Below, one piece after another: positions 13,322-60,417 of a stretch of DNA of 64,000 nt (positions are counted from its first letter, which is position 1; each line of letters opens with the position of its first letter). The stretch comes from a virus. The stretch lies in IMG/VR virus record IMGVR_UViG_3300009183_000059, positions 1 to 64,000 of that record. One strand, 5' to 3'. The translations under genes and the position numbers were made by a program. The notes beneath the pieces were generated by a model, which was not told the DNA's origin, searched no databases, and saw only the letters and a list, made by a program, of their open reading frames with translations.

Positions 13322-14311
13322 GTGATTTTAAGTTTTAACACTAATCCAGGAAATTTAAATATTTCTACAGGTTATGGATATGCGGGATATCATATTGTAA
13401 CAAGTCTACAGAAACTAGGATACAAAGTTCCTTTTAAATACAAGGGTGCTAAAGTTCAATTAAATTTTAGTCAACCACAATTTTTTGATTTAAATAAAGA
13501 TCAATATCAAATTGGATATATGCCATGGGAATCGACTCAATTACAAGAGGGTTGGCTAGAAGCATTAAATGAATGTGACGAAGTATGGGCGACATCTCCT
13601 TGGGTAAAACAAGTTTATGAAAAATGTGGAGTAACTCCACCAGTACATGTTTACGAACATGGAATTGAAAATATTTGGCAACCAATTAAAAGATATAGAA
13701 AAGATGGACCATTAAGGTTTTTACATGTTGGAGAACCAGCACCTAGAAAATCAGGACAGATGACTTTCGAAGCTTTTGTTGATGTTTTTGGAAATGATCC
13801 AGATTATCGTTTAACTATTAAATCTTATAAATATAATACTATAAGAGTATATAATAAATATAATAATATTATAGATAGTACTTTAACTAAAACATATAAT
13901 AATATTTCAATTATACCTGAAGAAGTTTCTACAAGTCAAATGGTAGGCATTTTTAACTCTCATCACTGTTTAATCTATCCATCTTGGGGAGAAGGTTTTG
14001 GTTTCATACCGCTTCAAGCTCTTGCAAGTGGAATGCCAGTAATTTGTACTGAAGAGTGGGCACCATATAAAAAATTCTTAGGACCGCTAGCACTTAAATC
14101 TCAATATGTAGAATCTCCTTGGCAACACCCTCACCCTGGACTAATGGTTGAGCCTTCATACGAAGATCTTTGCGATTTGCTAAGAAAGACTGCTAACGAG
14201 TATAATACTATTGCGGACTATTATTATGAGCAGGCTGCGGAAGTTGGTAAAGCATACGATTGGTTGCAGTTGACTGATAATGCTTTCTCAAGATTAAAAG
14301 AAAAATTTTAA
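13322..14311 (+). CDS. Glycosyltransferase family 4 (GT-B)
   Basis: FLHVGEPAPRKS, IYPSWGEGFGFIPLQALASGMPVI, PWEST motif. Confidence 0.9.
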   Translation: MILSFNTNPGNLNISTGYGYAGYHIVTSLQKLGYKVPFKYKGAKVQLNFSQPQFFDLNKDQYQIGYMPWESTQLQEGWLEALNECDEVWATSPWVKQVYEKCGVTPPVHVYEHGIENIWQPIKRYRKDGPLRFLHVGEPAPRKSGQMTFEAFVDVFGNDPDYRLTIKSYKYNTIRVYNKYNNIIDSTLTKTYNNISIIPEEVSTSQMVGIFNSHHCLIYPSWGEGFGFIPLQALASGMPVICTEEWAPYKKFLGPLALKSQYVESPWQHPHPGLMVEPSYEDLCDLLRKTANEYNTIADYYYEQAAEVGKAYDWLQLTDNAFSRLKEKF

Positions 14312-14399
14312 AAGTTTTAGTTCTTTAAAAAAAAGTCACTATACTTAGTATTACCAATAAAATTAAACCCAACATGTGGGACTAGAGGAGTATTCTAAA

Positions 14400-16331
14400 A
14401 TGCAAGATGTAATTAAAAATCCATACGAGAACTTTATCGCTCTGAGCCGTTATGCAAGATGGCTACCAGATCAAAACCGTCGTGAAACTTGGGGAGAGAC
14501 AGTAGATCGATTTGTTTTGTATATGACAAATCACCTTAAGAACGATTATAACTATGAACCTTCTGCTAGCCTAACTCTAGAGATTCGTGATGCAATTTTT
14601 AATAGAAACATCATGCCTTCTATGAGAGCTGTGATGACAGCAGGTCAAGCTTTAGATAGAGATAATGTTGCTGGATACAATTGTTCTTTCTTGCCAGTCG
14701 ATTCAATGCGTTCTTTTGACGAAGCAATGTATATCTTGATGTGCGGAACAGGTGTTGGATTTTCAGTAGAGTCAGTTTACATTGACAAGTTACCAATTGT
14801 TAACGAACACTTTGAAAAAACAGATACAACAATTATAGTTGAAGATTCTAAAGCTGGTTGGGCAAAAGCACTTCGTGAACTTCTTGCTTTGTTATGGCAA
14901 GGACAAATTCCTACATGGGATGTTTCGCAGGTACGTCCTGCAGGTGCAAGACTAAAGACATTTGGTGGACGTGCATCTGGTCCAGAACCATTGGTAAATC
15001 TTTTTGAATTTTGTATTACAACAGTTAAGCATGCGGCAGGAAGAAGATTACGTTCGGTAGAAGCACATGACATTATGTGTAAGATTGGTGAAGTAGTTGT
15101 AGTTGGTGGCGTTCGTCGTTCTGCATTAATTTCACTTTCTGATCTTCGTGATACAGACATGGCAAAAGCAAAGTCTGGTGCTTGGTGGGAGGCAACTGGG
15201 CATCGTGCACTTGCAAATAACTCTGTTGCTTATCAAGAGCGTCCATCAATGGCTGATTTTATTGCTGAGTGGAAAAATCTTTATGATTCAAAATCTGGAG
15301 AGCGTGGCATTTACAATGTTAAGGCTGCACAAAAGCAAGCAGCTAAATATGGTCGTAGAGATGAAACAATTCGTTACGGAACTAATCCTTGTTCTGAAAT
15401 TATTTTGCGTCCGTATCAATTTTGCAATCTTTCAGAAATTATTGTCCGTGAAGAGGATGATGAAAAAACATTAACTCGTAAAGTAGAGCTAGCAACCATT
15501 CTTGGGACATGGCAATCAACACTTACTAACTTTAAGTACCTTCGCAAAATCTGGAGAGAAAATACAGAAGAAGAAAGACTACTTGGCGTTTCTATTACTG
15601 GGCAATTTGGAAATCAACTAATGTCTGGCAAGAAAGGCATGGACAAACTTTCTAAGGTTTTGAATTCACTAAGAGAGATTGCTGTATCTACAAACGTTGA
15701 AGAGGCTGGAAAGATTGGTATTAATCCTTCTGCAGCAGTTACTTGCGTTAAGCCTTCAGGAACTGTTTCACAGCTCACTGGAGTATCTTCTGGTATGCAC
15801 CCATGGCACAACGAATATTACATCCGTACAGTCCGTGGAGACAAGAAAGATCCGCTAACTCAATTTTTAATGGAGGCAGGAGTTCCAGCAGAAGATGACT
15901 TTATGAATCCTACTCAAACAAAAGTATTTTCATTCCCTATCAAAGCTCCAAAGGGTGCTGTATTAAGAAATGATCTTACTGCTATTGAACACTTGAATAT
16001 TTGGCTAACATATCAAAGAGATTGGTGTGAGCATAAGCCTTCTATTACTGTTTCAGTTCGTGATGAAGAGTGGATGGAAGTTGGTTCTTGGGTTTGGGAT
16101 CACTTTGACGAAGTTTCAGGAATTTCGTTCTTGCCATACTCTGACCACACTTACAAGCAAGCCCCTTATCAGGATGCTACAGAGCAGGAATACTTAGACG
16201 CCGTTGCAAAGATGCCAGAAGAAATTCATTGGTCAATGCTAACTCTTTATGAGACAGAAGACTCAACTACTGGAAGTCAAAATCTGGCATGTTCAGCTGA
16301 TGCTGGATGCGAAGTGGTAGACATTAACTAG
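14400..16331 (+). CDS. nrdJ: Class II adenosylcobalamin-dependent ribonucleotide reductase
   Basis: RRETWGETVDR, YNCSF, GTGVGFS, TNPCSEI, FCNLSE, CVKPSGT, C-terminal Cys pair; GAGGAG RBS before ATG 14400. Confidence 0.92.
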   Translation: MQDVIKNPYENFIALSRYARWLPDQNRRETWGETVDRFVLYMTNHLKNDYNYEPSASLTLEIRDAIFNRNIMPSMRAVMTAGQALDRDNVAGYNCSFLPVDSMRSFDEAMYILMCGTGVGFSVESVYIDKLPIVNEHFEKTDTTIIVEDSKAGWAKALRELLALLWQGQIPTWDVSQVRPAGARLKTFGGRASGPEPLVNLFEFCITTVKHAAGRRLRSVEAHDIMCKIGEVVVVGGVRRSALISLSDLRDTDMAKAKSGAWWEATGHRALANNSVAYQERPSMADFIAEWKNLYDSKSGERGIYNVKAAQKQAAKYGRRDETIRYGTNPCSEIILRPYQFCNLSEIIVREEDDEKTLTRKVELATILGTWQSTLTNFKYLRKIWRENTEEERLLGVSITGQFGNQLMSGKKGMDKLSKVLNSLREIAVSTNVEEAGKIGINPSAAVTCVKPSGTVSQLTGVSSGMHPWHNEYYIRTVRGDKKDPLTQFLMEAGVPAEDDFMNPTQTKVFSFPIKAPKGAVLRNDLTAIEHLNIWLTYQRDWCEHKPSITVSVRDEEWMEVGSWVWDHFDEVSGISFLPYSDHTYKQAPYQDATEQEYLDAVAKMPEEIHWSMLTLYETEDSTTGSQNLACSADAGCEVVDIN

Positions 16332-16385: not shown

Positions 16386-16736
16386 ATGCCATTTTTAACT
16401 AAGAATTTTAATGTAGACGAAGGCGCTACACTGACTTTCACTATCTTTTGGAAAGATCCAAATGATATTCCAATTAATATAACTGGTTATTCCGCAAAAA
16501 TGCAGGCAAGAGATAAGCAAGGCGGAAAGATACTTTGCTTTACTTTAACCCATACAGATGGAATAGCTATAAATGGCCCACTCGGAAGAATTAGCGTAAC
16601 AGTATCTGCAGAAAGAACTACTAAGCTAGTTTATCCAAAGTCATTCTATGATCTAGTTCTCACCGCCCCAGATGGAGTTACCAAGACACGAATTCTTGAA
16701 GGAACACTTAGTGTTTCAAAGGCGGTTACAGTCTAA
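16386..16736 (+). CDS. Ig-like virion/fibre attachment protein (BppU/LtfC N-terminal-like)
   Basis: GATLTFTIFWKD...INITGYSAKMQAR...YDLVL...RILEG pattern; TGcTAAAAT promoter upstream. Confidence 0.65.
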   Translation: MPFLTKNFNVDEGATLTFTIFWKDPNDIPINITGYSAKMQARDKQGGKILCFTLTHTDGIAINGPLGRISVTVSAERTTKLVYPKSFYDLVLTAPDGVTKTRILEGTLSVSKAVTV

Positions 16737-17212
16737 TGGCTGAAATTACGGTTGTAGACAACTCAAACATTATTAATGTCACACAGGTTGACAATCAAGT
16801 AATCCTTTCAGACTCTGGAATTCAAGGTCCATCTGGAAGAACTATTCTTAATGGCTCTGGAGCTCCCGCTGACGGAGTTGGAGTAACTGGAGACTTCTAT
16901 TTTGACGTAGTTTCAAATAAGTTCTACGGACCTAAGCTCACAGACAACTCTTGGCTTAACGCCAAATCTATAATTCTTACACAAGAGGTTTCAGAAAAGA
17001 TTTCCTGGAGCCTTGCCCAAGTTAGTTCTACCCCTGATGCAGATGGCTATTACACAGTCACTCTTACTACATCTTTAGTTTTCCAGCCAAATGTTACAGT
17101 TATTGATAGCGGCGGCAATGCATTCGAAACTGGAGTACAGTATAATGAGAGTAATAAAACTGTGAAGCTTTTCATGACTTCTAGGTTTTCTGGGACAGCC
17201 TACCTGTCCTAA
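16736..17212 (+). CDS. Virion structural/fibre protein
   Basis: ILNGSGAP...GVTGDFYFD...FYGPK motif; C-terminal FSGTAYL. Confidence 0.7.
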   Translation: MAEITVVDNSNIINVTQVDNQVILSDSGIQGPSGRTILNGSGAPADGVGVTGDFYFDVVSNKFYGPKLTDNSWLNAKSIILTQEVSEKISWSLAQVSSTPDADGYYTVTLTTSLVFQPNVTVIDSGGNAFETGVQYNESNKTVKLFMTSRFSGTAYLS

Positions 17213-17225
17213 AGGGAGATAAAAA

Positions 17226-18521
17226 ATGGCTAGACAGTTTCTTATAGACATTGATTTAAAGCAAAATGAATTACGCAATGCCGTAATCCATAACCTAGGC
17301 ACAGCCCCACTAAGCGGAAAAGCTGGACAGGTTTATTACAACACTGCATCAAATCAACTATTCTTCCACAATGGAACTAGCTGGCAATCAGCTGGTCAGA
17401 TTAGTATCACACTCGGCGGAGATTTAAGTGGTACAGCTTCTACAAACGCATCAGGTCAAATAACTCTTAATGCAACAATTGAACCAAACTCCGTTGCTCT
17501 CGGCACAGATACTTCTGGAAATTATGTTGCAACACTTTCTTCAACAGACTCACATTTAACTATTGCAAACTCTGGAACAGAGACTGCAGCTGTAACAATT
17601 GTTACAAACGCAACAGCGCTAAATACAGCTTCAGCAATAGTATCTAGAAATTCAAATGGCGATTTTGCTGCTGGAACAATTACAGCTAACTTAACTGGTA
17701 ATGTAACTGGAAATCTAACTGGAGACGTTAAGAATACAGATGGCACAACCATCTTGGATTCTGGAAACTCTAATGCTAGAGCAGTATTTACTGGAGATGT
17801 TTCTGGAAATGCTTCTACAGCAGATACCTTATTAGTAGCACGTAAAATTGAACTTGATGGTGACGTCAAGGGAGAAGTTAATTTTAATGGATCTCAGAAT
17901 GTAGTAATTACAACCGCAATTCAACCAAACTCAGTAGCACTTGGAACTGATACAACTGGAAATTATGTAGCTGGAATTTCTGGAACTACTAACCAGATTT
18001 CAGTAACTGGCTCAGGTTCTGAGTCTGCAGCAGTAACAATAGGTTTACCAGATAACGTAGAAGTTGTTGGAAACTTACAGGTTGGCGGAAACTTAAATGT
18101 TGTTGGAACAGTTAACTCAGTTAATACAACTCAAGTCAACATTGTCGATAACAAGATTAATCTTAATACATCTTTCACTGGAGTTCCTACAACAGATGCT
18201 GGAATTCGTGTAGAGCGTGGAGATGCCGCTGATGTTGAAGTTTTATGGAATGAAACTGATGACAAGTGGACACTTACAAATGATGGATCTAACTACCACC
18301 ATATTGTTAGAAAATATGCAGAGACACTTTCAACCTCACTTGCTACCTACACTATTTCACACATGTTAGGTTCACAAGATGTTGTAGTTCAAGTATTTGA
18401 AACAGGCGGTTCTAAAGAGCAAGTAGAAGTTGGAGTAGAGCATTTTTCTCCGACACAAGTTAAACTACAGTTTGCTACCGCACCAACAGCTGGAGCTTAT
18501 AGAGTCGTAATCACTGGATAA
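17226..18521 (+). CDS. Tail fibre protein
   Basis: Repeated PNSVALGTDT(S/T)GNYVA, ARKIELDGDVKG, AGIRVERG motifs. Confidence 0.75.
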   Translation: MARQFLIDIDLKQNELRNAVIHNLGTAPLSGKAGQVYYNTASNQLFFHNGTSWQSAGQISITLGGDLSGTASTNASGQITLNATIEPNSVALGTDTSGNYVATLSSTDSHLTIANSGTETAAVTIVTNATALNTASAIVSRNSNGDFAAGTITANLTGNVTGNLTGDVKNTDGTTILDSGNSNARAVFTGDVSGNASTADTLLVARKIELDGDVKGEVNFNGSQNVVITTAIQPNSVALGTDTTGNYVAGISGTTNQISVTGSGSESAAVTIGLPDNVEVVGNLQVGGNLNVVGTVNSVNTTQVNIVDNKINLNTSFTGVPTTDAGIRVERGDAADVEVLWNETDDKWTLTNDGSNYHHIVRKYAETLSTSLATYTISHMLGSQDVVVQVFETGGSKEQVEVGVEHFSPTQVKLQFATAPTAGAYRVVITG

Positions 18522-18532
18522 GGAGTTAGTAT

Positions 18533-18787
18533 ATGTCATCTATAAAAAGACTAGTACCACTTCATGCAGTTGAATTATCAACAGACCCAGCCAATGGAAG
18601 AATTGGCGATATTTATTATAATAGTGCTGTAAAAGAATTAAGATTTTATGATGGAAGCTCATGGCAACCTGCTGGTGGAGCACTTAGTGGTATTTTAGAT
18701 CACGTACACACTTATGATGGAGAAATTTATTCTGTAGAAAATGTTCAAATTCCAAATCCAGGATTTATTGATGGCGGAGATGCATAA
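18533..18787 (+). CDS. Small fibre-associated protein
   Basis: GDIYYNS...LRFYDGSSW, IDGG end motif. Confidence 0.65.
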   Translation: MSSIKRLVPLHAVELSTDPANGRIGDIYYNSAVKELRFYDGSSWQPAGGALSGILDHVHTYDGEIYSVENVQIPNPGFIDGGDA

Positions 18788-19989
18788 TGTCATCAGTTAT
18801 AAGATTACGAAGAGGAACATCTGCTCAATGGGCAACATCAACAATAGTTCTTGCTACCGCTGAACTTGGTTTAGATACAACTTTAAATAAATTAAAAGTT
18901 GGAAATGGCATGTATACATGGCCAAATCTTCCTTTTATAAATGTTCTACCTTCAGAGCTTGCTGAACTATCTCAAGATGCTATAAATAGCGCTTTAGTCA
19001 TGGGACTACATATGTCAAAGACATATGACGATGCTGCAAATACAATAACAATTGCCTCTACTCTTACAAATGTAGATAATACATCTGATGCAAATAAGCC
19101 TATATCTACAGCCACCGCAACCGCATTAAATCTTAAAGCACCATTAGCAAATCCAGCATTAACGGGAATACCAACTGCTCCAACTGCAACGGATACAACT
19201 AATACAACACAGATTGCAACAACAGAGTTTGTTAAAACTGCCGTCGCAAATCTTGTTAACTCAGCGCCAGAAGCATTAAATACTCTTAAAGAATTATCAG
19301 ATGCACTGGGTGCCGATTCAAATTATGCAAGCACAATATCTACTGCTTTAGGACTAAAAGCTCCTTTAGCTTCACCAACATTTAGCGGAACAGTATCTTT
19401 ACCATCGAATACATCTATTGGGACAGTTAGCTCAACAGAAATTGGATATGTATATGGTGTTACATCATCAATTCAGAATCAAATAAATTTAAAATCTCCA
19501 CTAGCAAATCCAACATTTACTGGAACAGTAAATGGTATTACAAAAACAATGGTTGGCCTAGGAAATGTAGATAATACTTCAGATTTAGATAAACCAGTAT
19601 CATCTGCAGCTTCACTTTTGCTTGGACAACTACAAACATCACTAACGGATGGACTTGCAGCTAAAGTTGATAAGGCAACTATCCCATCAATTAAATCTGA
19701 TACAGCATATACAATTAGCAATCAAACAGATAGATATAATAGACTTGAATTTGATTCTTCATCACCAATTACTGTAACTATTCCAACAAATTTAAATGAT
19801 CCTTGGCCAGTAGGTTCAAGCTGTGAAATTATGCAGGCTGGAACTGGGAAAATTACTGTAGTTGGTCAATCTGGTGTAACTTTAAATGCACCAGACAATC
19901 AATTTAAAACCAGAGTTCAGTGGAGCACACTTATCCTTGAAAAAAGAAGCCAAAATAGTTGGCTAGTATCGGGAGACTCTGATCTATAA
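18787..19989 (+). CDS. Tail fibre with Mtd/hyaluronidase-type N-terminal domain
   Basis: IRLRRGTSAQW...ELGLDTTLNKLKVGNG; NVDNTSDxxKP, KAPLASPTF, LNTLKELSDALG repeats; C-terminal QAGTGKITV...WLVSGD. Confidence 0.8.
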   Translation: MSSVIRLRRGTSAQWATSTIVLATAELGLDTTLNKLKVGNGMYTWPNLPFINVLPSELAELSQDAINSALVMGLHMSKTYDDAANTITIASTLTNVDNTSDANKPISTATATALNLKAPLANPALTGIPTAPTATDTTNTTQIATTEFVKTAVANLVNSAPEALNTLKELSDALGADSNYASTISTALGLKAPLASPTFSGTVSLPSNTSIGTVSSTEIGYVYGVTSSIQNQINLKSPLANPTFTGTVNGITKTMVGLGNVDNTSDLDKPVSSAASLLLGQLQTSLTDGLAAKVDKATIPSIKSDTAYTISNQTDRYNRLEFDSSSPITVTIPTNLNDPWPVGSSCEIMQAGTGKITVVGQSGVTLNAPDNQFKTRVQWSTLILEKRSQNSWLVSGDSDL

Positions 19990-21392
19990 TGGGATTATCA
20001 AGAAAAAAAAGAAACATTGTATCTTCAAGGTTAAAAGCTTTTGTATTCTTTCAAGATAGTTTTAATAATTATTTTAAAGGCGGATGGAAATTTAGAAGAG
20101 GTGAATGGGTAGCCCAGACATCTAAAGCAAGCACTGCATATAGCTCTTCTCTTTATCCAATGGCTTCAGTCCCAATGAAAGATACAAATGTAACTATTTC
20201 TATTAAAGACCCAGGCGTTGGTGCAGGTGCCGCTCTTTGGGTTACAGACGATGGAAACTGGTATGGACTAGTATCTTCACAAACATTAAGTTCTGGAACT
20301 GGTGGATGTGTTTCTGCAAACCCATACAATCCTTGTGGATCTACAAATCCATGCCAACCAACTGGAGGTAATTGCGTCTCATCTGGTGGAAATTGTATTG
20401 CTACTGGAGGATGCTCTGGAACTGGCGGAAACTGCGTGGCAACTGGTGGTGAGTATTGTTGTGAATATCCAGAGTGCGTAGCAACTGGAGGAACCTGTAA
20501 TCAAACTGGCGGAAACTGCATAAGCTCAGGAGGTAATTGTAATACTGGTGGTGGTAATTGTAATACAGGAGGCGGTAACTGTCGCTCTGCTACTGGCGGA
20601 AACTGTAATGCAGGAACTGGAGGAAATTGTAGAACCTTTGGTAACTGCCTGATTTACGGTAGCTATTATATATCTTGTTGTAAATCATACAATCCATATA
20701 ACCCATGTCCTAGCGTTAATCCATATAATCCATGTCCTAGCGTTAATCCATACAACCCTTGTGTAAGTATAAATCCATATAACCCATGCGTAAGTATTAA
20801 TCCCTATCAGGCTTGTAATGGACTTAACCCATATAATCCATGTGCAAACGTCAACCCATATAATCCATGTGGGGCTACTAGATATGTTCAAGTTTATTAT
20901 GCAATAGATCCATGTGGAGCAACAAACCCATATAATCCATGTGGATCTTCAAACCCATATAATCCATGTGCTGGAACAAACCCATATAATCCATGTGCTG
21001 GAACAAACCCATATAATCCATGTGGGGCTGGTGGAAATTGTTCTGGAACTGGCGGAAGTTGTAATTCTTATGCAAATACATATCCAAGATACCTACAATT
21101 TATTAAATTTACATCAAATGTAGCAACTACACTTTTTACAATGACACTAGACGCTGTAACAAGCTATACTCAGATGAGAGGGTTAAAAGTACAAGTTTCA
21201 AATTCAACAAAAGGCGGAACCACAGCCACTATTACGGCTAAAGCATACTCTGATACCGCCATGGTTACGCAGATTGGTCCTGACTTGATATATAACGCAA
21301 CAGGTGTTAATATTATAGCTAACTACGGAATAGTTGTTTCTCCAAGCAGCTATAACGAAGATAAGTCACTTGGGGAAATTACAATATCGTAA
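19989..21392 (+). CDS. Fibre-associated protein with mirror-symmetric 34-Cys GGNC/NPYNPC insert in a beta-rich scaffold
   Basis: Direct reading of the translation; coupled (TAATG) to the fibre gene. Confidence 0.85.
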   Translation: MGLSRKKRNIVSSRLKAFVFFQDSFNNYFKGGWKFRRGEWVAQTSKASTAYSSSLYPMASVPMKDTNVTISIKDPGVGAGAALWVTDDGNWYGLVSSQTLSSGTGGCVSANPYNPCGSTNPCQPTGGNCVSSGGNCIATGGCSGTGGNCVATGGEYCCEYPECVATGGTCNQTGGNCISSGGNCNTGGGNCNTGGGNCRSATGGNCNAGTGGNCRTFGNCLIYGSYYISCCKSYNPYNPCPSVNPYNPCPSVNPYNPCVSINPYNPCVSINPYQACNGLNPYNPCANVNPYNPCGATRYVQVYYAIDPCGATNPYNPCGSSNPYNPCAGTNPYNPCAGTNPYNPCGAGGNCSGTGGSCNSYANTYPRYLQFIKFTSNVATTLFTMTLDAVTSYTQMRGLKVQVSNSTKGGTTATITAKAYSDTAMVTQIGPDLIYNATGVNIIANYGIVVSPSSYNEDKSLGEITIS

Positions 21393-21402
21393 GGAGTATA
21401 CT

Positions 21403-21621
21403 ATGACAATTGATATCCCAGCATGGGACAGGGTTTCAGTAGGAGAACCTGCACCAACAATCCCATTTGCATTAATTTTAGATGGAGTCGTACAGCAAGT
21501 AATGAATACAAACGTAACAACAGCATCTCTTCTTTTAGAAAACCCACAAATTATTAGAACTAATGATTACACTGTTGTTGGCGATACAGCTGATTCAGCA
21601 GTTTTTGTACAGCCAGCTTAA
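21403..21621 (+). CDS. Small protein, paralogue of 22327-22635 (start revised)
   Basis: AAGGAG RBS before ATG 21403; ALILDGVVQQVM...LLLENPQII. Confidence 0.75.
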   Translation: MTIDIPAWDRVSVGEPAPTIPFALILDGVVQQVMNTNVTTASLLLENPQIIRTNDYTVVGDTADSAVFVQPA

Positions 21622-21652
21622 TTAGCAAAACTTTAATAGAATAGAGCAGTAA

Positions 21653-22330
21653 ATGAAAATAATAAAGTTCATTCCTTTTGGCGGGAGGAAAAAACTTATG
21701 CCACCATCTGTTTCAAAAATACCACAATGGTGGAGAGATGGGGAGTTAGTTTTATCCCAAGGTGAACCTGGACTAAAATCGTGTGTTCCTTTTATGGAAG
21801 TTATGATGTCTGGATATACAATAAATCTGCCGTTTGATTTGTTTGTTTCTAAAAATGAAGAAGGAAACACTAGCATAAAATGGAATGCTCCAGGTCATAA
21901 TGGCTGGCCAAATTTTATTGAAGAAAGACCAAAAGAACTTGGAGAGACTATTCCAAGGCCAGCAGGTCATTTACCAAATGGTTTTATTTGGGCTGGTCAG
22001 TGGTCGTGGAAAACTCCAAAAGGATATAGTGCTTTAGTTACTCATCCATTTAATAGGTTTGATTTACCATTCACCACTTTGTCAGCTACAATGGACGCCG
22101 ATAAATTTTATGGCAATGGAAATGTTCCGTTTTTCCTTAAAGAAGATTTTCAAGGAGTAATTCCTGCTGGAACACCAATAATTCAAATTTTCCCTTACAA
22201 AAGAGATAAATGGAAGTCTTGGGTAGATGATTCTGAGCTAGAACGTATAAACGAAAAACAATTAATAAATCTAAGAACTCCTGAAGGATCATATAAAAAA
22301 AGATTTTGGGTAAAAAAGGTGTATGAATGA
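21653..22330 (+). CDS. DUF6065-related (dUTPase-like fold) protein 1
   Basis: KSCVPF...GY, TPKGYSALVTHPFNR, LSATMDAD, IPAGTPIIQIFPYKR. Confidence 0.65.
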   Translation: MKIIKFIPFGGRKKLMPPSVSKIPQWWRDGELVLSQGEPGLKSCVPFMEVMMSGYTINLPFDLFVSKNEEGNTSIKWNAPGHNGWPNFIEERPKELGETIPRPAGHLPNGFIWAGQWSWKTPKGYSALVTHPFNRFDLPFTTLSATMDADKFYGNGNVPFFLKEDFQGVIPAGTPIIQIFPYKRDKWKSWVDDSELERINEKQLINLRTPEGSYKKRFWVKKVYE

Positions 22331-22635
22331 TATTTAGAAAAAAAAATAAGATTGAAAAAATCAACCCAAAAATAGATGATTTTAAACAGCCAAAAAATTA
22401 TCATAGCCCCATAAAAACATATTCTATTGCTTTAGTTCTGGACAATGAGGTCCAGGATATAATTAGAACAGAGGAAAGACTTTGGGCAATGCTAATGAGC
22501 AACCCACTGATAATAGATATAACAGACCTTGAAACAAGACCAGGTTTAAACTGGGAATACAATGAAGAAACAGGAGAGTTTACAAATCCAAATGCGATTC
22601 AGCCCAACAACAAAGAAGATCAAAGCCTTATCTGA
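22327..22635 (+). CDS. Small protein, paralogue of 21403-21621, fibre-chaperone-like
   Basis: ALVLDNEVQDII...MLMSNPLII...GLNWEYNEETGEFTNP. Confidence 0.75.
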   Translation: MIFRKKNKIEKINPKIDDFKQPKNYHSPIKTYSIALVLDNEVQDIIRTEERLWAMLMSNPLIIDITDLETRPGLNWEYNEETGEFTNPNAIQPNNKEDQSLI

Positions 22636-23272
22636 AGATATTTATGTAGACTGGGAAAAACCAAGTCCATCATCAAAAGAAATACCAGACTGGTTTAAAA
22701 AAATTCAATCAGTAGATGATGAACATCATGATATGACTATTAAAAAGTGTATACCAGTTTTGGATACGCTTACAATAGGATATGTATTTAAAACTTCTGC
22801 AGATGTGATATATGATGACAGATATAAGAGATTTCTTGACAACGGTGTTGGTGATGTTGTTACTCATCATCCATCATTTCAAATAGAAAATATGGAGATA
22901 GACAGTAATCTTGACCCAATTCCATTTAAATGGATAAATAAATTTTTTTGGCAAACCCCAAAAGGATACAGCACTCTTTTTACACATCCTTTAAATAGAA
23001 CAGATTTGCCGTTTCAGACTCTTTCTGGAGTAGTAGATACAGATGATTTTCCTTTATCTGTCCAGTTTCCGTTTTTTATAAAAAAGGGATTTTCTGGATT
23101 AATTCCTGCTGGTACTCCAATAATTCAAGCAATACCTTTTAAAAGAGATAATTGGGAGCTAGAATTTCCAGATCAAGATAGATCTTATGAGTATGAAGAA
23201 TTTTGGAATTGGTTTAATCCACCAATGGCTAAGTATAAAAAACAGTTCTGGAAGAGAAAGACTTATAAATGA
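22592..23272 (+). CDS. DUF6065-related protein 2 (start 22562 or 22592)
   Basis: KKCIPV...GY, TPKGYSTLFTHPLNR, LSGVVDTD, IPAGTPIIQAIPFKR. Confidence 0.65.
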   Translation: MRFSPTTKKIKALSEDIYVDWEKPSPSSKEIPDWFKKIQSVDDEHHDMTIKKCIPVLDTLTIGYVFKTSADVIYDDRYKRFLDNGVGDVVTHHPSFQIENMEIDSNLDPIPFKWINKFFWQTPKGYSTLFTHPLNRTDLPFQTLSGVVDTDDFPLSVQFPFFIKKGFSGLIPAGTPIIQAIPFKRDNWELEFPDQDRSYEYEEFWNWFNPPMAKYKKQFWKRKTYK

Positions 23273-24117
23273 AAAATGGGTCAAAAAGTCCATGGGAAAT
23301 CTTTAAATCTAAAAAGATTGAAAAAATATCTTTAGAGGATGAGATAAAAAAAGATTATATCAACGACGATAATTTTCTTGTCCCAGAAAAAACTTTGGCT
23401 TTCTATGCAACTAAAGATACTAGGCATAATCTTTCTGACGTAATAGAAAGTCTGGTAGGCCATCCAAATAGAGATTGGTTTTCAATAACAGCATTTTCTT
23501 TTTGTCTGCCTTTAACAATAGCAAATCAGTATGGTTTTGTTGTAAAATCAAATTGGGATGCAGAGATATTTTGGGATGGCAATATAGAAAATCCACCAGA
23601 AATTAAATCTGAAGGATGGCAAAATCATGAATCTATACAGCCTTTATTAGGAGATTTTGCAAATGGAATAATTACACTAGAAAATAAATTTATTGTAAGG
23701 ACCCCAAGGGATACAAATTTAATGATAATGCAGCCACCAAATTATTTTATTCCAGGGCTACATACTATGAGCGCTGTTGTCGAATCAGATAATCTTAGAA
23801 GAAATTTTACCTTTAATATAAAAGTAACTGAGCCAAATAAGACCATAAATATTAAAAAGGGTGACTGGCTTGCAGCCTTTATACCAATCCCAAGATTCTA
23901 TGTAGATATGTTTAAGATGAAGGATGCCTTTGATTTGTTTGGTGAAGAGGTTATAAAAAATGAGCTAGAATCCATGCATAAGCTTGGATGGGAAAGAAAT
24001 AATCAAGATTATGATAAAATTAATGGTTCAGGAAGAAGATATTTTAAAGGTAAGCATGTAAATGAAACAATGTATAGAAATCATCAAAAGAGGGCGGGTT
24101 CAATAAATGGACAATAA
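23269..24117 (+). CDS. DUF6065 family protein 3
   Basis: FCLPLTIANQYGF, RTP...PPNY, SAVVESD, FTFNIK, KKGDWLAAFIPIPR. Confidence 0.7.
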   Translation: MKNGSKSPWEIFKSKKIEKISLEDEIKKDYINDDNFLVPEKTLAFYATKDTRHNLSDVIESLVGHPNRDWFSITAFSFCLPLTIANQYGFVVKSNWDAEIFWDGNIENPPEIKSEGWQNHESIQPLLGDFANGIITLENKFIVRTPRDTNLMIMQPPNYFIPGLHTMSAVVESDNLRRNFTFNIKVTEPNKTINIKKGDWLAAFIPIPRFYVDMFKMKDAFDLFGEEVIKNELESMHKLGWERNNQDYDKINGSGRRYFKGKHVNETMYRNHQKRAGSINGQ

Positions 24118-24376
24118 TGATATTCCTAAATGGAAAAATGTTCCAGCTAGACCGTGGGACCTATTTAATAAAAAAATAGGTAGAGTCTCTGTAGAGGTTG
24201 CGGCTGAGAGATTTGAGATATGTAAGGCATGCCCAAGATATGTTAAATCTACCCATCAGTGCTTAGAATGCGGATGTATTATGAATTTAAAAGTTAAGCT
24301 TCCAAATGCAGAATGCCCATTAGGTCATTGGGGACAAGTTGACCTAGAAGAAGACTTAGACACAAAAGAAGAGTAG
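24107..24376 (+). CDS. Small Cys-rich metal-binding protein (DUF6171-like)
   Basis: RFEICKACP...QCLECGCIM..K......CPLGHW. Confidence 0.75.
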   Translation: MDNNDIPKWKNVPARPWDLFNKKIGRVSVEVAAERFEICKACPRYVKSTHQCLECGCIMNLKVKLPNAECPLGHWGQVDLEEDLDTKEE

Positions 24377-24409
24377 CGATTTATGCTTTATCTAAGGTAT
24401 AATTAAATC

Positions 24410-27160
24410 ATGGCTACGTCATTTCCAACCTCAAAAGACACTCTGATTAATCCACAACCTACGGATTCACCAGAATTAGTCTCACATGCCGCCCAGCATG
24501 CTAATGCCAATGACGCAATAGAAGCCCTTGAAACTAAAGTCGGAGTTAATAATTCTGCTGATGCTACATCCCATGATTATAAGATCAGAACCCTTGAGTC
24601 CTATGCAATTAGCTATGAGACTGCTCAGGATGCCGCAGGAGCCCTTTTAGGACATACAAACCATACAAACCTTATAGCCACCTATGATGACGTTTTAAAT
24701 GAAGTTAGATTATCAGTAGCCGCTCCAGATGTTGCAAGAACAATTTATCAAACAGCAAAAAATGAAACAGGTGCAACCTTAGCAAAAGGTAAGCCAGTAT
24801 ATGTAACTGGATCAGTAGGAGCATCAGGTAAAATTAAGGTTGGATTAGCTTCAAACGTAGCAGAAGCACAATCAAGCAAAACATTTGGATTTACGGCAGA
24901 GTCTATTTCTAATAATGGCGAAGGTCAAATAATTACTGAAGGTCTTCTTTCTGATATTAATACAGTTGGCGGAGCTGACGGAGATCCAGTATGGTTAGGA
25001 GCAAGCGGCAGTTTAATATTTGGTCTTGCTAATAAGCCAGTAGCGCCAGCACACCTAGTATTTATTGGAATTGTTGTTCGTGGAGGGAATGCAAACAATG
25101 GTTCTATCTTTGTTAAAATTCAAAATGGGTTTGAGCTACAAGAGCTACATAATGTATTAATACAGTCTCCAGCAAATAACAACGCCTTGGTCTATGACTC
25201 TGCAACTAGTTTATGGAAAAACTATGACCTTAGTAACTTTTTGGCAACTAAGACTTATGCAGATACATCTGCAACAACAGCGCTAAATACAGCAAAAACA
25301 TATACAGATACTTCTATATCAAATCTTATAGATGCTGCTCCTGGAGCCTTAGACACACTTAATGAGCTAGCAGCGGCAATTAATGACGATTCCTCATATG
25401 CCGCAACAGTAACAACAGCATTAGGAACTAAACTAAATATAACTGATGCTGCATCCACATATCTATCGCTTGCAAATACAGACGAAAGGATTCAGGATGT
25501 TGTTGGCGGAATGGTATCTACAAATACAGAGGGTGGAATTGAGGTTACATATGACGATCCAACAGGAAAGTTAAACTTCAGCGTTACACCAGCACTTATA
25601 ACAGAGTTTGTAGAGTCTGCCCAAGACGCTTCAGCATCATTATTAAATCACTCTGATCATAATAAGATAACCGCTACATACAATGATGAGACAAATAAAG
25701 TAATTTTAAATGTTGATGAACCAATTAAGGTTAGCGTATCAGCTCCAGCAAATCCATTAAATGGGGATAGCTGGTTTGATCATCAGACTGGAGTTTTGTA
25801 TGTTTATGACGGATCATATTGGATTGAAGTCTCAGGTGGAACTGGATTTACCGCAAGCGGAGTAAATGATCTACCAGATACGATTGCATATTTAACTGGA
25901 GTAACAAGTAATATACAACCACAGCTGAATGCTAAAGCACCACTTTCATCTCCTTCTCTTACAGGCATACCAATAGCTCCAACAGCATTAGTAGATACAA
26001 ATACTACACAAATTGCAACAACTGCTTATGTTGTAGGTCAAGGTTATTCAAAGATAGCTTCTCCAACATTTACTGGAACAGTAGTTCTTCCAGCAACCAC
26101 TTCAATTGGAACAATAACTTCAACAGAATTAGGGTACCTTGATGGAGTAACATCAGCAATTCAAACACAGATTAATACTAAATCTCCATCTGCTTCTCCA
26201 ACATTTACTGGAACAGTAGTCTTGCCAGGAACTACATCAATAGGTACAGTTGATTCAACAGAATTAGGGTACCTTGATGGAGTAACATCAGCAATTCAAA
26301 CACAAATAAACTCTAAACTTGCAACAACAGCATTTACATATGCTGGAATTACAAAAGCATCTTATGCAAACGTAGGCTCACTTCCAGCAGCAGCATCAAA
26401 TACTGGCAAAGTTATGTATGTTACAGCTGATGGATATATGTACTATTCAACAGGAGCAACCTGGGTAAAAGTTGCAAAATTTAATGATACAACATCATTA
26501 ACATATAATATTAATGCTTTAACAGATGTTGATACTTCAACTACAGCCCCATTAATTAATCAGGTTTTAGGTTGGAACGGAACCAACTGGATTCCAGTAA
26601 ATCAAAATTCAGCAACCCCACAAATAACACTTGACGATATTACAAATGTTAATTTAACTGTGGCGCCAGAAATTGATGATGTTCTTACATATGATGGAAC
26701 AAACTGGGTTGCCTTACCTGCAGGAAGTACAACTCCAACAACCACAGCTTTTTCAGACTTAACAGATATATTTAAGACAGCAGATATGATTGCATATCCA
26801 GCTATAACAAGATTAAATGTTACTGCCTCTGGATCATCAGGATATCTTTTTACAAATCAATATAACAATACAGTTAATCCAACAATATATGCTATTTCTG
26901 GAACAACAATTGCGTTTAATCTAAATGTGCCAGGACATCCATTTTTAATTCAAACAACTGGAGGAGTCAATAGTAATTTAGGGCTAATTCACGTAGATAT
27001 AGATGGAACTGAAGGTATTGGTGGCGCAGCTCAGGCAAAGACTAGTGGAACTGTCTATTGGCAAATACCAGTTAATGTTACTGGAAATTATAAATACCAG
27101 TGTGCTGCACATACAGTAATGAATGGCATTATTACAATTAAGGATATATCAGCAATATGA
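24410..27160 (+). CDS. Long tail fibre protein, probably leaderless
   Basis: Fibre repeats (TYDD, LDTLNELAAA, SPTFTGTV, TELGYLDGVTSAIQTQ); C-terminal cupredoxin-like HPF...YQCAAHTVMNG; TATAAT ends 6 nt before ATG. Confidence 0.8.
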   Translation: MATSFPTSKDTLINPQPTDSPELVSHAAQHANANDAIEALETKVGVNNSADATSHDYKIRTLESYAISYETAQDAAGALLGHTNHTNLIATYDDVLNEVRLSVAAPDVARTIYQTAKNETGATLAKGKPVYVTGSVGASGKIKVGLASNVAEAQSSKTFGFTAESISNNGEGQIITEGLLSDINTVGGADGDPVWLGASGSLIFGLANKPVAPAHLVFIGIVVRGGNANNGSIFVKIQNGFELQELHNVLIQSPANNNALVYDSATSLWKNYDLSNFLATKTYADTSATTALNTAKTYTDTSISNLIDAAPGALDTLNELAAAINDDSSYAATVTTALGTKLNITDAASTYLSLANTDERIQDVVGGMVSTNTEGGIEVTYDDPTGKLNFSVTPALITEFVESAQDASASLLNHSDHNKITATYNDETNKVILNVDEPIKVSVSAPANPLNGDSWFDHQTGVLYVYDGSYWIEVSGGTGFTASGVNDLPDTIAYLTGVTSNIQPQLNAKAPLSSPSLTGIPIAPTALVDTNTTQIATTAYVVGQGYSKIASPTFTGTVVLPATTSIGTITSTELGYLDGVTSAIQTQINTKSPSASPTFTGTVVLPGTTSIGTVDSTELGYLDGVTSAIQTQINSKLATTAFTYAGITKASYANVGSLPAAASNTGKVMYVTADGYMYYSTGATWVKVAKFNDTTSLTYNINALTDVDTSTTAPLINQVLGWNGTNWIPVNQNSATPQITLDDITNVNLTVAPEIDDVLTYDGTNWVALPAGSTTPTTTAFSDLTDIFKTADMIAYPAITRLNVTASGSSGYLFTNQYNNTVNPTIYAISGTTIAFNLNVPGHPFLIQTTGGVNSNLGLIHVDIDGTEGIGGAAQAKTSGTVYWQIPVNVTGNYKYQCAAHTVMNGIITIKDISAI
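26057..26310 (+). repeat. Intragenic tandem repeat, 135-bp period (45 aa)
   Basis: GCTTCTCCAACATTTACTGGAACAGTAGT at 26057 and 26192; TCAACAGAATTAGGGTACCTTGATGGAGTAACATCAGCAATTCAAACACA occurs twice. Confidence 0.8.
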
Positions 27161-57424: not shown

Positions 57425-60397
57425 TTGATAAGCATTCCAGCATTAACACAGATCCTGTCAGAAAATACATCAGTAAAGGCTCTGCCTAAAGTCATATTTG
57501 AATACAATATGAACGAGATGGCAGGCACCGTTGAGGTAACAACTTCCTCAACTCAATCAGATATTATAAAAGAATTGTTCCCAGCAAAGTCTATAGTTCA
57601 GTCATTTAGACCATCAAAGGCAGGAGTAAGATACGCAATTCTAGGTACAGGCTTGACCCTAGGCACATATAAAACAAAGGTCATCCCTACAACAAGAACA
57701 TATATGGTTGATAAAAATATACCTTACACCTATTTCTTGGCTCAAGGAAGCGCAGTTGCCGTTGTATCATATAAAAATAAATCTGGAAGTGCTGCACAAA
57801 ATATATTAACAAATAAAATATCTGTTCGTGTAGAAACTGGCCATGGCTCAAATACAATATCTATAGGCTCACTATATACTGGATCAGTTCCTTCATCTGG
57901 AATTGTAGACATTTGGTATAACGGAACTGCTTGGACAACTACAGAGCCAGCAACTTATGCAACTCCACAATCAATATCAACATTAACAGTAACCGTATCA
58001 GGAGGGACATTTAATTCAATCATTGAGGTATCTCCAAAATATGTTTTAGATGTCACAAACAGAGTTATATCTGTTAATATTGATAAAGATGATTCAATGA
58101 ATGATGACAAACTTCCAGTTGGAATGCTTACAGCAAATGCGGCATCACTTAATCTGTCAACCATAATTCAAGACGATATAGTTCAGTTTCTTCGTGGTGA
58201 CACCATTGTCTCAAATAAAGTGATGATAACTAATAACATAAAATGCATAGTCAAGTTTATTATTGAAGATACACATTCTGTTCAGCAGGGAGTATTTTAT
58301 ATAAATGACTACAGCTCTGATGAGTATGGAAACTATTCAATTAAAGCACTAGATGTTGCAAAGTTTCTTCAAGAGATACCGTGTCCCGAAATAATGCTAA
58401 AGGATTCATCCTTCCAAGCAATTATGTGGAGAGTTCTTGATGCAGTTGGATTTGTGGACTATGATTTTTCAAAATGCACAGCAGACGTTTTAACTTGTAG
58501 ATATTGGTGGGGCGATTCAAACAAATCAGTATGGCAGGTAATACAAGAAATTTGTAGAGAAAGCCAAACAGTAGCTTATGTAAACGAATCTGGAACATTG
58601 GTGTTTATAGATAGAGACACATTCTACAGCTCAATACCAAACTACACATGGACTTTTAGATCCACCCCACTTGCAAATATGAAGCCAGATATTATTCAGT
58701 TGTCATCTTCATCTAGACCAACAACTAATGCTGTAAGAATTAAATATAATGTTCCAACAACAAGTTCCCAAGAAGCATCTTCTCAACCACTGTGGACCGA
58801 ACAATCACCATCAACTTTATTTGCGGCTCCTTATAAAGGAATATCTTCAGGTTACATCTTATATCCAGAAAGAGGAGTGTTCTCAGATGTTATCCCAACG
58901 AGATTTAACTCCTACATTCTTGTAGGCGGAGAAATTATAGAATATGATGCTATAAGATTTCAATCTCCAGATGGAGAAGTTGATGTATCTTCTGCTGGGC
59001 AGTATCTTGAATTAAGAGCAAAGCATAATAATAACTTGAGTCCCGTAGGAAAACTAAAGATAAAAGCTAGAAATGTATTTGGAACCCCAAATACAACAGC
59101 AAATCCCGTTCAGTCACCATCTTTAATTCTAGATGGATACAGTGCAAGACAAATTAAACTAGGAACAACAACAAATAATTCTGTTGATATATCAAAAGTT
59201 TGCGCTATGAATCAATCTGGAAATAACATGTCTGCCTTATCTATAAGTGCATCTGGCTCTAAAGATGATTTATATTTAGTTAGTAAGACATTTCCATATA
59301 CATCAGACTCTGAATTTTTCCAAATAGGTACAGCAATTGGATTTGAATTAGCCTCAGCATCCCAGATAGGAATTCAACAGACTTCTGGAATGACATTCTT
59401 CTGGAATAATTCTACTAATAGTGGATACCTACTTCTACTATACTCAACAAGATCTGCACAGAATGTTAAGCAGAAATCGGAAGCTGCTTTGTATAAAGTT
59501 ACTAATGGGTCAGCCAAACTTCTTGAGAGCGTAACCTCAAATATATTTGAAGAGTCTTTTTATGGATTAGATATCTTAGTGCACAAAGAATCAACTAAGA
59601 ATACTATTTTTATAAGTGTTAATGGAAGTACAATCGAATATGAAGACGCAACAAGCCCAATCGCTGCAACATCAACCATAGGTCTTGTGGCTGGAGGTCA
59701 ATCAACTGCATACTTTGATTATCTATACTCATTAAAGAGAGACGCATTTGTACTAGATATATCTGCATCAAGAACTAGCGGTAGGCTGTTATCCAATTCA
59801 TTTTTCCAGAAGTTTACATATGATTCTGCCACAGCATCTAATTTAAAATATGATGAATTTGGAGATGTGATTAGAGAGCTATATAAGGCTGAGGCTCAAT
59901 ATGAATCTGCATATGCTATTGCAGCCCAACCATCAGACGGTCTTGCCCAGGTGGTAGGACAAAGGCTTGGATACTATAAGGGTGAGTTTTATGTATTTAA
60001 TACTTCATCTTCTACAATTGCCCTAGCTGGCGGAGACGGCAAAGACTTATTTGTGTATGGTGTATCTGTAGCAAATGCTGGTCAAAATTTTTACAACTCA
60101 GATGACAAAATTACGGATGTAAAGCAAATAACCTCATTTGACTCTCAGTGGATACAAAGCAAGGAAGCGGCCAAAAGCCTATCAGACTTCCTTACAAAGC
60201 AATGGTCTAAGTCAACAGTAGACATTGATATGGAAGTTTTTGGAAATCCTGTACTTCAGGTGGGGGATATTGTTACAATTAATTATCCAGAAAGAGGTTT
60301 TGACGGATCTGGCAAGTTTGTTATCAGATCTATATCACATTCTATGGATATTGGAATAAGCACCAGGCTAAAACTACGTTCGATTTATTCGGCTTAG
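57425..60397 (+). CDS. Baseplate hub / tail tip protein
   Basis: 990 aa; C-terminal GNPVLQVGDIVTI motif; synteny. Confidence 0.75.
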   Translation: MISIPALTQILSENTSVKALPKVIFEYNMNEMAGTVEVTTSSTQSDIIKELFPAKSIVQSFRPSKAGVRYAILGTGLTLGTYKTKVIPTTRTYMVDKNIPYTYFLAQGSAVAVVSYKNKSGSAAQNILTNKISVRVETGHGSNTISIGSLYTGSVPSSGIVDIWYNGTAWTTTEPATYATPQSISTLTVTVSGGTFNSIIEVSPKYVLDVTNRVISVNIDKDDSMNDDKLPVGMLTANAASLNLSTIIQDDIVQFLRGDTIVSNKVMITNNIKCIVKFIIEDTHSVQQGVFYINDYSSDEYGNYSIKALDVAKFLQEIPCPEIMLKDSSFQAIMWRVLDAVGFVDYDFSKCTADVLTCRYWWGDSNKSVWQVIQEICRESQTVAYVNESGTLVFIDRDTFYSSIPNYTWTFRSTPLANMKPDIIQLSSSSRPTTNAVRIKYNVPTTSSQEASSQPLWTEQSPSTLFAAPYKGISSGYILYPERGVFSDVIPTRFNSYILVGGEIIEYDAIRFQSPDGEVDVSSAGQYLELRAKHNNNLSPVGKLKIKARNVFGTPNTTANPVQSPSLILDGYSARQIKLGTTTNNSVDISKVCAMNQSGNNMSALSISASGSKDDLYLVSKTFPYTSDSEFFQIGTAIGFELASASQIGIQQTSGMTFFWNNSTNSGYLLLLYSTRSAQNVKQKSEAALYKVTNGSAKLLESVTSNIFEESFYGLDILVHKESTKNTIFISVNGSTIEYEDATSPIAATSTIGLVAGGQSTAYFDYLYSLKRDAFVLDISASRTSGRLLSNSFFQKFTYDSATASNLKYDEFGDVIRELYKAEAQYESAYAIAAQPSDGLAQVVGQRLGYYKGEFYVFNTSSSTIALAGGDGKDLFVYGVSVANAGQNFYNSDDKITDVKQITSFDSQWIQSKEAAKSLSDFLTKQWSKSTVDIDMEVFGNPVLQVGDIVTINYPERGFDGSGKFVIRSISHSMDIGISTRLKLRSIYSA

Positions 60398-60417
60398 ATT
60401 GGTATAATGGAGATATA

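Follow-up and report, generated by a model that had tools for sequence, protein, structure and literature searches.

Organization of the locus

The window (the whole stretch of DNA that was analysed) consists of 64,000 nucleotides (nt), positions 1 to 64,000 of the IMG/VR record IMGVR_UViG_3300009183_000059, and is part of a 94-kb record of an uncultured virus, the completeness of which is estimated at 77%. We consider here six open reading frames (ORFs) of its + strand (21403-24376), called A to F, which have a series of tail-fibre genes (16736-21392) on one side and more fibre genes, from 24410, on the other. The gene that precedes A codes for Lad, a protein with a ladder of Cys residues and the presumed client of the six gene products, which we discuss below as a possible cassette for the maturation or the assembly of Lad. 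The genes are the following (aa, amino acids; DUF, domain of unknown function; sm, the family of the small paralogues).

18787..19989, + strand: fibC, a fibre gene with matches among the tail-fibre families of PHROG (E as low as 1e-29)
19989..21392, + strand: Lad, the Cys-ladder gene, which codes for a predicted lectin-fold tip protein with a 34-Cys repeat insertion
21403..21621, + strand: A, small paralogue 1 (sm family), 72 aa
21653..22330, + strand: B, DUF6065 superfamily, B-type, 225 aa; matches phrog_7084 with E=8.5e-33
22327..22635, + strand: C, small paralogue 2 (sm family), between two DUF genes, 102 aa
22592..23272, + strand: D, DUF6065 superfamily, D-type, 226 aa; modelled as a dUTPase-like beta-barrel
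23269..24117, + strand: E, Pfam DUF6065 protein of a type also present in bacteria, 282 aa
24107..24376, + strand: F, six-Cys protein, a divergent member of DUF6171 / phrog_13558, 89 aa
24410-27160: the next fibre gene; PHROG tail-fibre matches are found from 24410 onward

From Lad through A-F to the next fibre gene, the successive gaps (+) and overlaps (-) are +10, +31, -4, -44, -4, -11 and +33 nt. These short distances show that the six genes are tightly coupled, in agreement with an initial annotation of this DNA, which had described six coupled non-fibre genes here; all six are indeed present on the + strand. AGGAG is located 8 nt 5' of the ATG of A and, further upstream, the stop of fibC overlaps the start of Lad. 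An alternative start of D at 22562 would give 236 aa; we prefer the reading of 226 aa, since a 99%-identical protein in the databases has this length. A megablast search of the cassette against phage records gave no match.

Conservation of the gene order

A profile scan of IMG/VR gave 548 confirmed loci, 80 of which were retrieved. These 80 viral contigs and the window form a set of 81 loci, which were mapped by methods based on hidden Markov models and on clusters. Of the 81 loci, 39 have the order fibre gene, Lad, (sm), B-type DUF, sm, D-type DUF, with D proteins whose identity goes down to about 36%, and the first DUF gene after Lad is always the B-type orthologue. The synteny maps also show that a homologue of fibC precedes Lad in most of the related loci. 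Adjacent pairs of DUF paralogues are seen in 46 of the 81 loci. DUF genes occur in the absence of Lad in 42 of them, often beside other fibre-like genes, and they are also present in 49 records of haloarchaeal Hafunaviridae, between a class II ribonucleotide reductase (RNR) gene and adhesin/fibre genes.

The comparison with a close relative, L003, shows that the region of Lad diverges faster than its surroundings. Identity between the two viruses is 66% for A, 72% for Lad, 77% for B, 80% for D, 85% for C, 87% for E and 96% for F, compared with 90-98% for the fibre and structural proteins on either side. Local dips in identity are typical of host-range modules and of their partners; a dip centred on Lad and on the first helpers is thus as expected for a module of this kind.

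E-type copies are found in Steroidobacteraceae and in other metagenome-assembled genomes (MAGs), with about 40% identity. In at least 15 loci the bacterial DUF6065 gene has a gene of the 2-oxoglutarate (2OG)-dependent oxygenase family 2OG-FeII_Oxy_3 immediately upstream, on the same strand. In the bacterial MAG contigs L084-L112, this two-gene unit of 2OG-FeII_Oxy_3 and DUF6065 lies in neighbourhoods that have nothing else in common (FGGY kinase, SSF symporter, dehydroquinase).

Lad and its inserted loop

The AlphaFold2 model of Lad contains a single beta-sandwich, made of residues ~20-110 and ~358-467, which are both predicted at a pLDDT (per-residue confidence) of about 95. The centre of the protein is unstructured in the model (pLDDT 30-40), and the sole element predicted within it, weakly, is a hairpin at residues 214-234. 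In VIA-align comparisons, the sandwich resembles CBM66 (Z 16.0), a baseplate protein of mycobacteriophage Douge (Z 14.5), the receptor-binding domain of TM4 gp23 (Z 13.3) and the CBM2 of J-1 Dit (Z 12.1). The two conserved thirds of Lad form one ConA-like sandwich, so that the Cys ladder is an insertion of about 250 aa in a loop of that domain. On the basis of this model, Lad is best read as a receptor-binding tip protein of the lectin fold, into which a large loop is inserted. It is similar in its sandwich (Z 12-16) to the lectin-fold receptor-binding proteins of phages of actinobacteria and lactic acid bacteria (TM4 gp23, Douge, J-1 Dit CBM2), and it differs from them by the 250-residue low-complexity insertion, which is either Cys-rich or rich in Tyr, Thr and Ser.

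The homologues of Lad conserve a part of about 105 residues at the N-terminus and one of about 100 residues at the C-terminus, around a hypervariable centre of low complexity. The centres of the Cys type contain 8-34 Cys in repeats such as NPYNPC, GGNC, SPSYPC and WNASxC, among others. In ten loci (L010, L011, L017, L019, L021, L028, L029, L031, L032 and L034) the insert of Lad has only 0-2 Cys, Tyr/Thr/Ser-rich repeats (TTYTSG, PYTS) having taken the place of the Cys type. In a tree of the Lad domain, these Cys-free Lads form a single nested clade.

The small proteins A and C

A and C are 38% identical over a core of 40 residues (E=2e-6) and the two small paralogues that had been recognized in the sequence are thus genuine. 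A gene of the sm family adjoins Lad in all complete Lad-DUF cassettes, including those of the Cys-free clade, and is absent from the Lad-less loci, save those truncated immediately upstream of this gene. The family is not part of the bacterial DUF6065 operons either. Its only match there is L106, a contig labelled as a Bacteroidota MAG, which carries three sm genes and one DUF6065 gene and resembles a binned phage fragment.

C has no match in Pfam or among PDB sequences, the 33 members of the sm family have no Pfam family in common, and the sm profile gives only chance-level matches with PDB sequences. Among the Atlas neighbours there is a weak lead (0.81) from C to tail-fibre assembly proteins. 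The position of A and C and their co-inheritance with a fibre-tip gene would fit the tail fibre assembly family, and the sm proteins are probably Lad-specific partners, chaperone-like by these two features.

In lambda (stf-tfa), Mu (S-U) and T4 (gp37 with gp38 and gp57A), a tail-fibre gene is followed by dedicated assembly helpers. Like these helpers, the sm genes are small, fast-evolving, located directly downstream and co-inherited. The present cassette differs in that it has six genes, three of which encode proteins that have the fold of an enzyme and conserve polar residues, and in that it has no sequence similarity to Caudo_TAP or to other known helpers.

The paralogues B, D and E

Three paralogues had been proposed among the six genes, and this holds. 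B and D are 34% identical (E=5e-40), the pairwise match between B and E is weak (E=2e-4), the profiles of the D and E families match with an hhalign probability of 95.7%, and phrog_7084 is matched by B, D and E alike. Only E passes the cut-off of Pfam DUF6065 (PF19541), with 101.8 bits and E=5.5e-29 for a gathering cut-off of 26.6 bits, as confirmed by the search of the virus's own record; B and D have no Pfam match at E<=1. Some homologues do pass the cut-off (the DUF protein of L044, with 31.1 bits, P0096 and P0104). It is therefore by phrog_7084, hhalign and these homologues, rather than by the Pfam threshold, that B and D are tied to E as divergent members of the superfamily.

With 2,674 clusters (50% identity, E<=1e-3), the superfamily is a large one, and nearly all of its proteins stand alone and have 215-260 aa. 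The only longer homologue is P0241, a metagenomic protein of 513 aa whose N-terminal half is DUF6065-like and whose C-terminal extension of about 290 residues has no Pfam match; the search for longer forms thus provides no informative Rosetta stone. A tblastn search of E against phage records gave no match. We found nothing in the literature on DUF6065 or PF19541, and broader searches for a system of this type were likewise without result.

As for the motifs listed in the initial annotation, S-x3-(D/E)-x-D, I-x-x-G and P-x-(K/P)-R are found in the three paralogues, and the spacing that follows CxP has to be corrected: it is CxP-x7-G(Y/F), not x6. The (H/P)PxN motif reads HPxN in B and D and QPPN in E. 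A Cys-His-Asn triad in B and D was considered and rejected since the His is kept neither in E nor in the superfamily as a whole. In a set of 177 phage, archaeal-virus and bacterial sequences, the near-universal residues are W34, C53, P55, G63, P123, P133, D151, G174, P182 and R185 (D numbering), and the polar ones among them point to a putative ligand-binding or catalytic site. The Cys of CxP (C53 of D, codon 22748-22750) is conserved in 99% of the 177 sequences. This makes it a fair candidate for catalysis, as had been suggested, or for ligand binding, but a residue that is nearly invariant throughout the superfamily cannot be a device specific to the Cys ladder.

A dUTPase-type fold

The AlphaFold2 model of D, built from 36 homologues, has a pLDDT of 87 and a pTM (global model confidence) of 0.84. 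In an exhaustive structural comparison, its best 23 VIA matches all belong to the dUTPase superfamily (Z 9.2-5.3), after which the score drops to Z 3.1; they comprise dUTPases, dCTP deaminases, herpesvirus dUTPase-related proteins and the baculovirus protein Tlp20. The dUTPase from Aquifex is matched with Z 9.2 and a root-mean-square deviation of 3.2 A over 117 residues, pp71 of human cytomegalovirus (HCMV) with Z 7.2, and ORF10 of murine herpesvirus MHV-68 with Z 6.2. The Foldseek searches of D against the PDB and against the viral models of BFVD also return lists dominated by dUTPases. B would have the same fold by homology to D. The idea that DUF6065 is a cupin or a barrel like that of the 2OG oxygenases was not supported: cupins score Z <= 2.6, compared to Z 9 for dUTPases.

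The sequences give a different picture. PF00692 (dUTPase) has no match in B, D or E, and hhalign comparisons of the D- and E-family profiles with five bacterial dUTPases give probabilities below 1%. A single local match to the dUTPase profile was found, over 9 residues that fall at motif 3 and include the motif-3-like acidic pair VDTD. Motifs 1, 2, 4 and 5 are unrecognisable, the P-loop of motif 5 is absent, and the C-terminus of the paralogues is a Y-K-K/R-x-F tail that stands in place of motif 5. The D-family profile has only chance-level matches among PDB sequences.

The paralogues resemble the trimeric dUTPase / dCTP deaminase superfamily in the beta-barrel of D, the colinear order of its strands and the acidic pair at motif 3. 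They differ from it in being about 80 residues longer, in having no profile similarity, and in conserving residues of their own: the W, the CxP and the R, together with a basic/aromatic C-terminal tail. The search for a canonical dUTPase in the record of the virus itself gave none, and all five DUF6065-bearing bacterial genomes that were checked encode one.

The six-Cys protein F

The Cys of F are arranged as C-x2-C ... C-x2-C-x-C ... C-P, with C39, C42, C52, C55, C57 and C70 invariant, so the CxxC, CxxCGC and CP motifs that had been attributed to one protein of the cassette are all present. F matches phrog_13558 with E=5.4e-14. It scores 18.5 bits against DUF6171 (PF19668), which is below the cut-off of 27, its relative in L017 scores 32.2 bits, and all 30 Atlas neighbours of F carry DUF6171. 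Chance-level matches only were obtained when the F-family profile was compared with PDB sequences.

An F gene accompanies 27 of the 29 Cys-rich Lads (of the two exceptions, one, L045, is a locus truncated just downstream) and none of the ten Cys-free Lads. A Fisher test gives p = 4.7e-6 for the association of F with a Cys-rich Lad, a value which is not independent evidence since the Cys-free Lads are one clade. The local arrangement of the genes is also informative. In L015, L016, L021, L022 and L042, F comes directly after copies of Cys-rich Lad that have no DUF genes. L021 holds both types of Lad and F adjoins the Cys-rich copy, and the distal F of L017 comes after another Cys-rich ORF, with 10 Cys. 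A six-Cys domain of the DUF6171 type is fused to the C-terminus of a GT60 protein in L012 (8630-10072), L013 (same coordinates) and L016 (2190-3482). F is the only element of the cassette that is linked to Cys, and probably a metal-binding docking module.

Enzymes found beside related cassettes

In the related loci, several enzymes of the tailoring type accompany the cassette, and one of them is found within 5 kb of a DUF gene in 37 of the 81 loci. Nineteen loci have a GT60 'GlcNAc' transferase (PF11397), usually encoded directly before F. A 2OG oxygenase of the P4H/PKHD type (PF13640, 2OG-FeII_Oxy_3) directly adjoins the DUF gene in 8 of its 12 phage copies. Another protein, GT2-TPR, is built like the peptide glycosyltransferases, and its match to SunS is faint. 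In six loci (four of the ten Cys-free ones, plus the partial loci L023 and L039), GT61 and HAD genes downstream of Cys-free Lads replace GT60 and F. The enzyme set seems to switch with the chemistry of the Lad loop. GT4 and a PseB/CapD-like UDP-sugar dehydratase are also found in related cassettes (PseB-like in 5), as is an N6_N4 DNA methylase, in 13. Thioredoxin, radical-SAM, YcaO and lanthipeptide-type enzymes were found in no variant of the cassette.

These genes recall the virion glycosylation islands of actinophages and the cytoplasmic Skp1-type pathway, in which a prolyl hydroxylase (P4H) is combined with a GT60 GlcNAc-transferase, owing to the GT60, P4H-type, GT2-TPR, GT61, HAD and PseB-like genes of the relatives. 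The record studied here differs, since it has none of these enzymes; P4H and GT60 genes accompanying a substrate gene, as in the Skp1-type pathway, are missing from it, and both occur in related cassettes. Nothing in the known pathways corresponds to the DUF6065 and DUF6171 parts. None of the enzymes added in the relatives occurs in the window's own clade (the window, L003-L007 and L009).

Just upstream of the fibre block of the window there are a gene for a GT4-type glycosyltransferase (13322-14311), which is the only glycosyltransferase of the record, and a gene for RNR (14376-16331). RNR genes are also near DUF genes in haloarchaeal viruses, in S-RIM4 and in several contigs. A flavin-dependent tryptophan halogenase (PF04820, E=2e-101) is encoded in L043 at 14725-16311, and others in L046, L047, L054 and L074; in viral contigs the halogenase genes adjoin DUF6065-like genes or the six-Cys F gene.

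Possible function of the cassette

We propose, with about even confidence, that the six genes form a conserved cassette for the maturation or assembly of Lad. The fold of D, that of Lad, the relationships among the paralogues, the conserved gene order and the patterns of co-occurrence, all described above, lead us to infer physical interactions and chemical steps as follows. The cassette would be transcribed by read-through with the fibre operon, late in infection. A and C, which go with every Lad whatever the composition of its loop, would probably be Lad-specific helpers of folding or attachment, like tail-fibre assembly proteins. B and D would be an ancient pair of paralogues with a dUTPase-type barrel, E a third copy of bacterial type, and the three proteins probably form a hetero-oligomer. 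Their conserved Cys/Asp/Arg/Trp site probably binds or transforms a ligand during the maturation of Lad. In phages as in bacteria, the DUF genes lie beside genes for oxygenases and for sugar enzymes, which suggests tailoring by hydroxylation or glycosylation, or the handling of nucleotide sugars, rather than disulfide or RiPP (ribosomally synthesized and post-translationally modified peptide) chemistry. F, a small and presumably metal-binding protein with six Cys, would most likely dock the machinery onto the Cys-type loop, or stabilise the latter.

Several observations weigh against this proposal. The record of the virus (94 kb, about 77% complete) has no match to PF11397, PF00535, PF04577 or PF13640, and the absence of GT60, GT2, GT61 and of a P4H-type oxygenase means that the idea of tailoring is borrowed from the relatives. 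No similarity was detected between the sm proteins and known fibre chaperones (Caudo_TAP, PF02413 and others). A DUF gene of cyanophage S-RIM4 is located between RNR and transaldolase, and other DUF genes are in bacterial chromosomes; with copies so far from any Lad or fibre gene, the basic activity of these proteins cannot be specific to Lad. Last, as the Cys-free Lads are one clade, the link between F and Cys comes down to a single transition (one loss) and to local adjacencies.

Three other explanations have to be weighed. According to the initial annotation, the Cys repeat would receive disulfides, metal or RiPP-like modifications from the whole cassette, the Cys of CxP being the candidate catalyst and A and C the chaperones. 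The tight coupling to the Cys-ladder gene, the near invariance of this Cys (99% of the 177 members of the superfamily) and the fact that F tracks the Cys-rich inserts are consistent with it, and the part that stands is the association of F with Cys-rich Lads, within a cassette whose order follows Lad in 39 of the 81 loci. The DUF and sm families were expected to occur with Cys-rich fibres only; however, B- and D-type DUF genes and sm genes are kept beside Lads with 0-2 Cys, so that the Cys-free clade already weakens the idea, and DUF genes are found without Lad in about half of the mapped loci, in haloarchaeal viruses and in bacteria. What joins the cassette in the relatives is a set of glycosyltransferases, an oxygenase of the P4H type and enzymes of sugar nucleotides; the types expected for disulfide or RiPP chemistry are absent from the variants. 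We consider this explanation very improbable. It is also unlikely, to a lesser degree, that B, D and E are nucleotide, nucleotide-sugar or DNA-modification enzymes which act on pools of dNTP or UDP-sugars rather than on the fibre, their place in the late region being incidental. Such a role would suit the dUTPase/dCTP-deaminase fold and the VDTD pair similar to motif 3, the proximity of RNR in the window, in haloviruses and in S-RIM4, the methylase and the PseB-like dehydratase of related cassettes, and the lack of a canonical dUTPase in the record. It is at odds with the dUTPase motifs, which are not found (no PF00692, hhalign below 1%, no motif-5 P-loop), with the normal dUTPase of the bacteria that have DUF6065, and with the type of the oxygenase partner, which is P4H/PKHD and not TET/JBP. 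Moreover, the genes are translationally coupled in the fibre operon, co-vary with Lad and evolve as fast as receptor-binding genes.

The last explanation, which we also regard as rather unlikely, is that B, D and E are not catalytic: a trimer-forming barrel could act as a template or chaperone for the assembly of the tip, or the proteins could be structural parts of the fibre tip. Herpesvirus tegument proteins related to dUTPase serve structurally, and D shares its fold with structural dUTPase-related proteins, among which HCMV pp71 and MHV-68 ORF10. The position of the genes directly behind a receptor-binding gene, their fast divergence, and an ancient B/D pair that is held together in more than half of the mapped loci would fit such a role. 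Against it, the polar residues are nearly invariant across the domains of life and, outside phages, the copies of bacteria come with an oxygenase; neither would be expected of a scaffold alone.

Returning to the maturation of Lad, a more specific version of our proposal is possible but doubtful. DUF6065-type proteins may be a large and unrecognised branch of the dUTPase fold that has been repurposed for tailoring or for nucleotide sugars and that, together with the sm proteins and a module specific to the loop, would build the hypervariable receptor-binding loop post-translationally. The loop-specific module would be DUF6171 for loops of the Cys type and GT61 with HAD for loops of the Tyr/Thr type, and the partners of DUF6065 would be P4H-type oxygenases and cytoplasmic glycosyltransferases.

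Receptor-binding tips set the host range of phages and, to our knowledge, what is known of the helpers of tips comes mostly from a few coliphages. The genes described here would be a widespread set of helpers in environmental phages, which includes a fold of the enzyme type not previously associated with fibres and whose composition varies with the chemistry of the hypervariable loop of the tip. If DUF6065 proteins are catalytic, thousands of proteins from phages, archaeal viruses and bacteria would acquire a function, and the dUTPase fold a new chemistry; if they are chaperones, they would define a new class of fibre assembly factors.

The gap before the next fibre gene

A late promoter that restarts the fibre genes at 24410 had been suggested. 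The 33-nt gap between F and this gene (24410-27160) contains the following element.

24394..24404, + strand: AAGGTATAATT element, a possible promoter -10 box

Within it, a lone GGTATAAT (24396-24403) ends 6 nt 5' of the ATG. Neither GGTATAAT nor AAGGTATAATT is a recurrent motif in the window, and a scan for two hexamers missed the element; the only other GGTATAAT of the + strand, at 60401-60408, is intergenic, just after an ORF that ends at 60397. What speaks for the suggestion is conservation: the AAGGTATAATT element is kept in the close relatives L003 and L006, and has a similar form in L009. A candidate restart promoter before 24410 is plausible.

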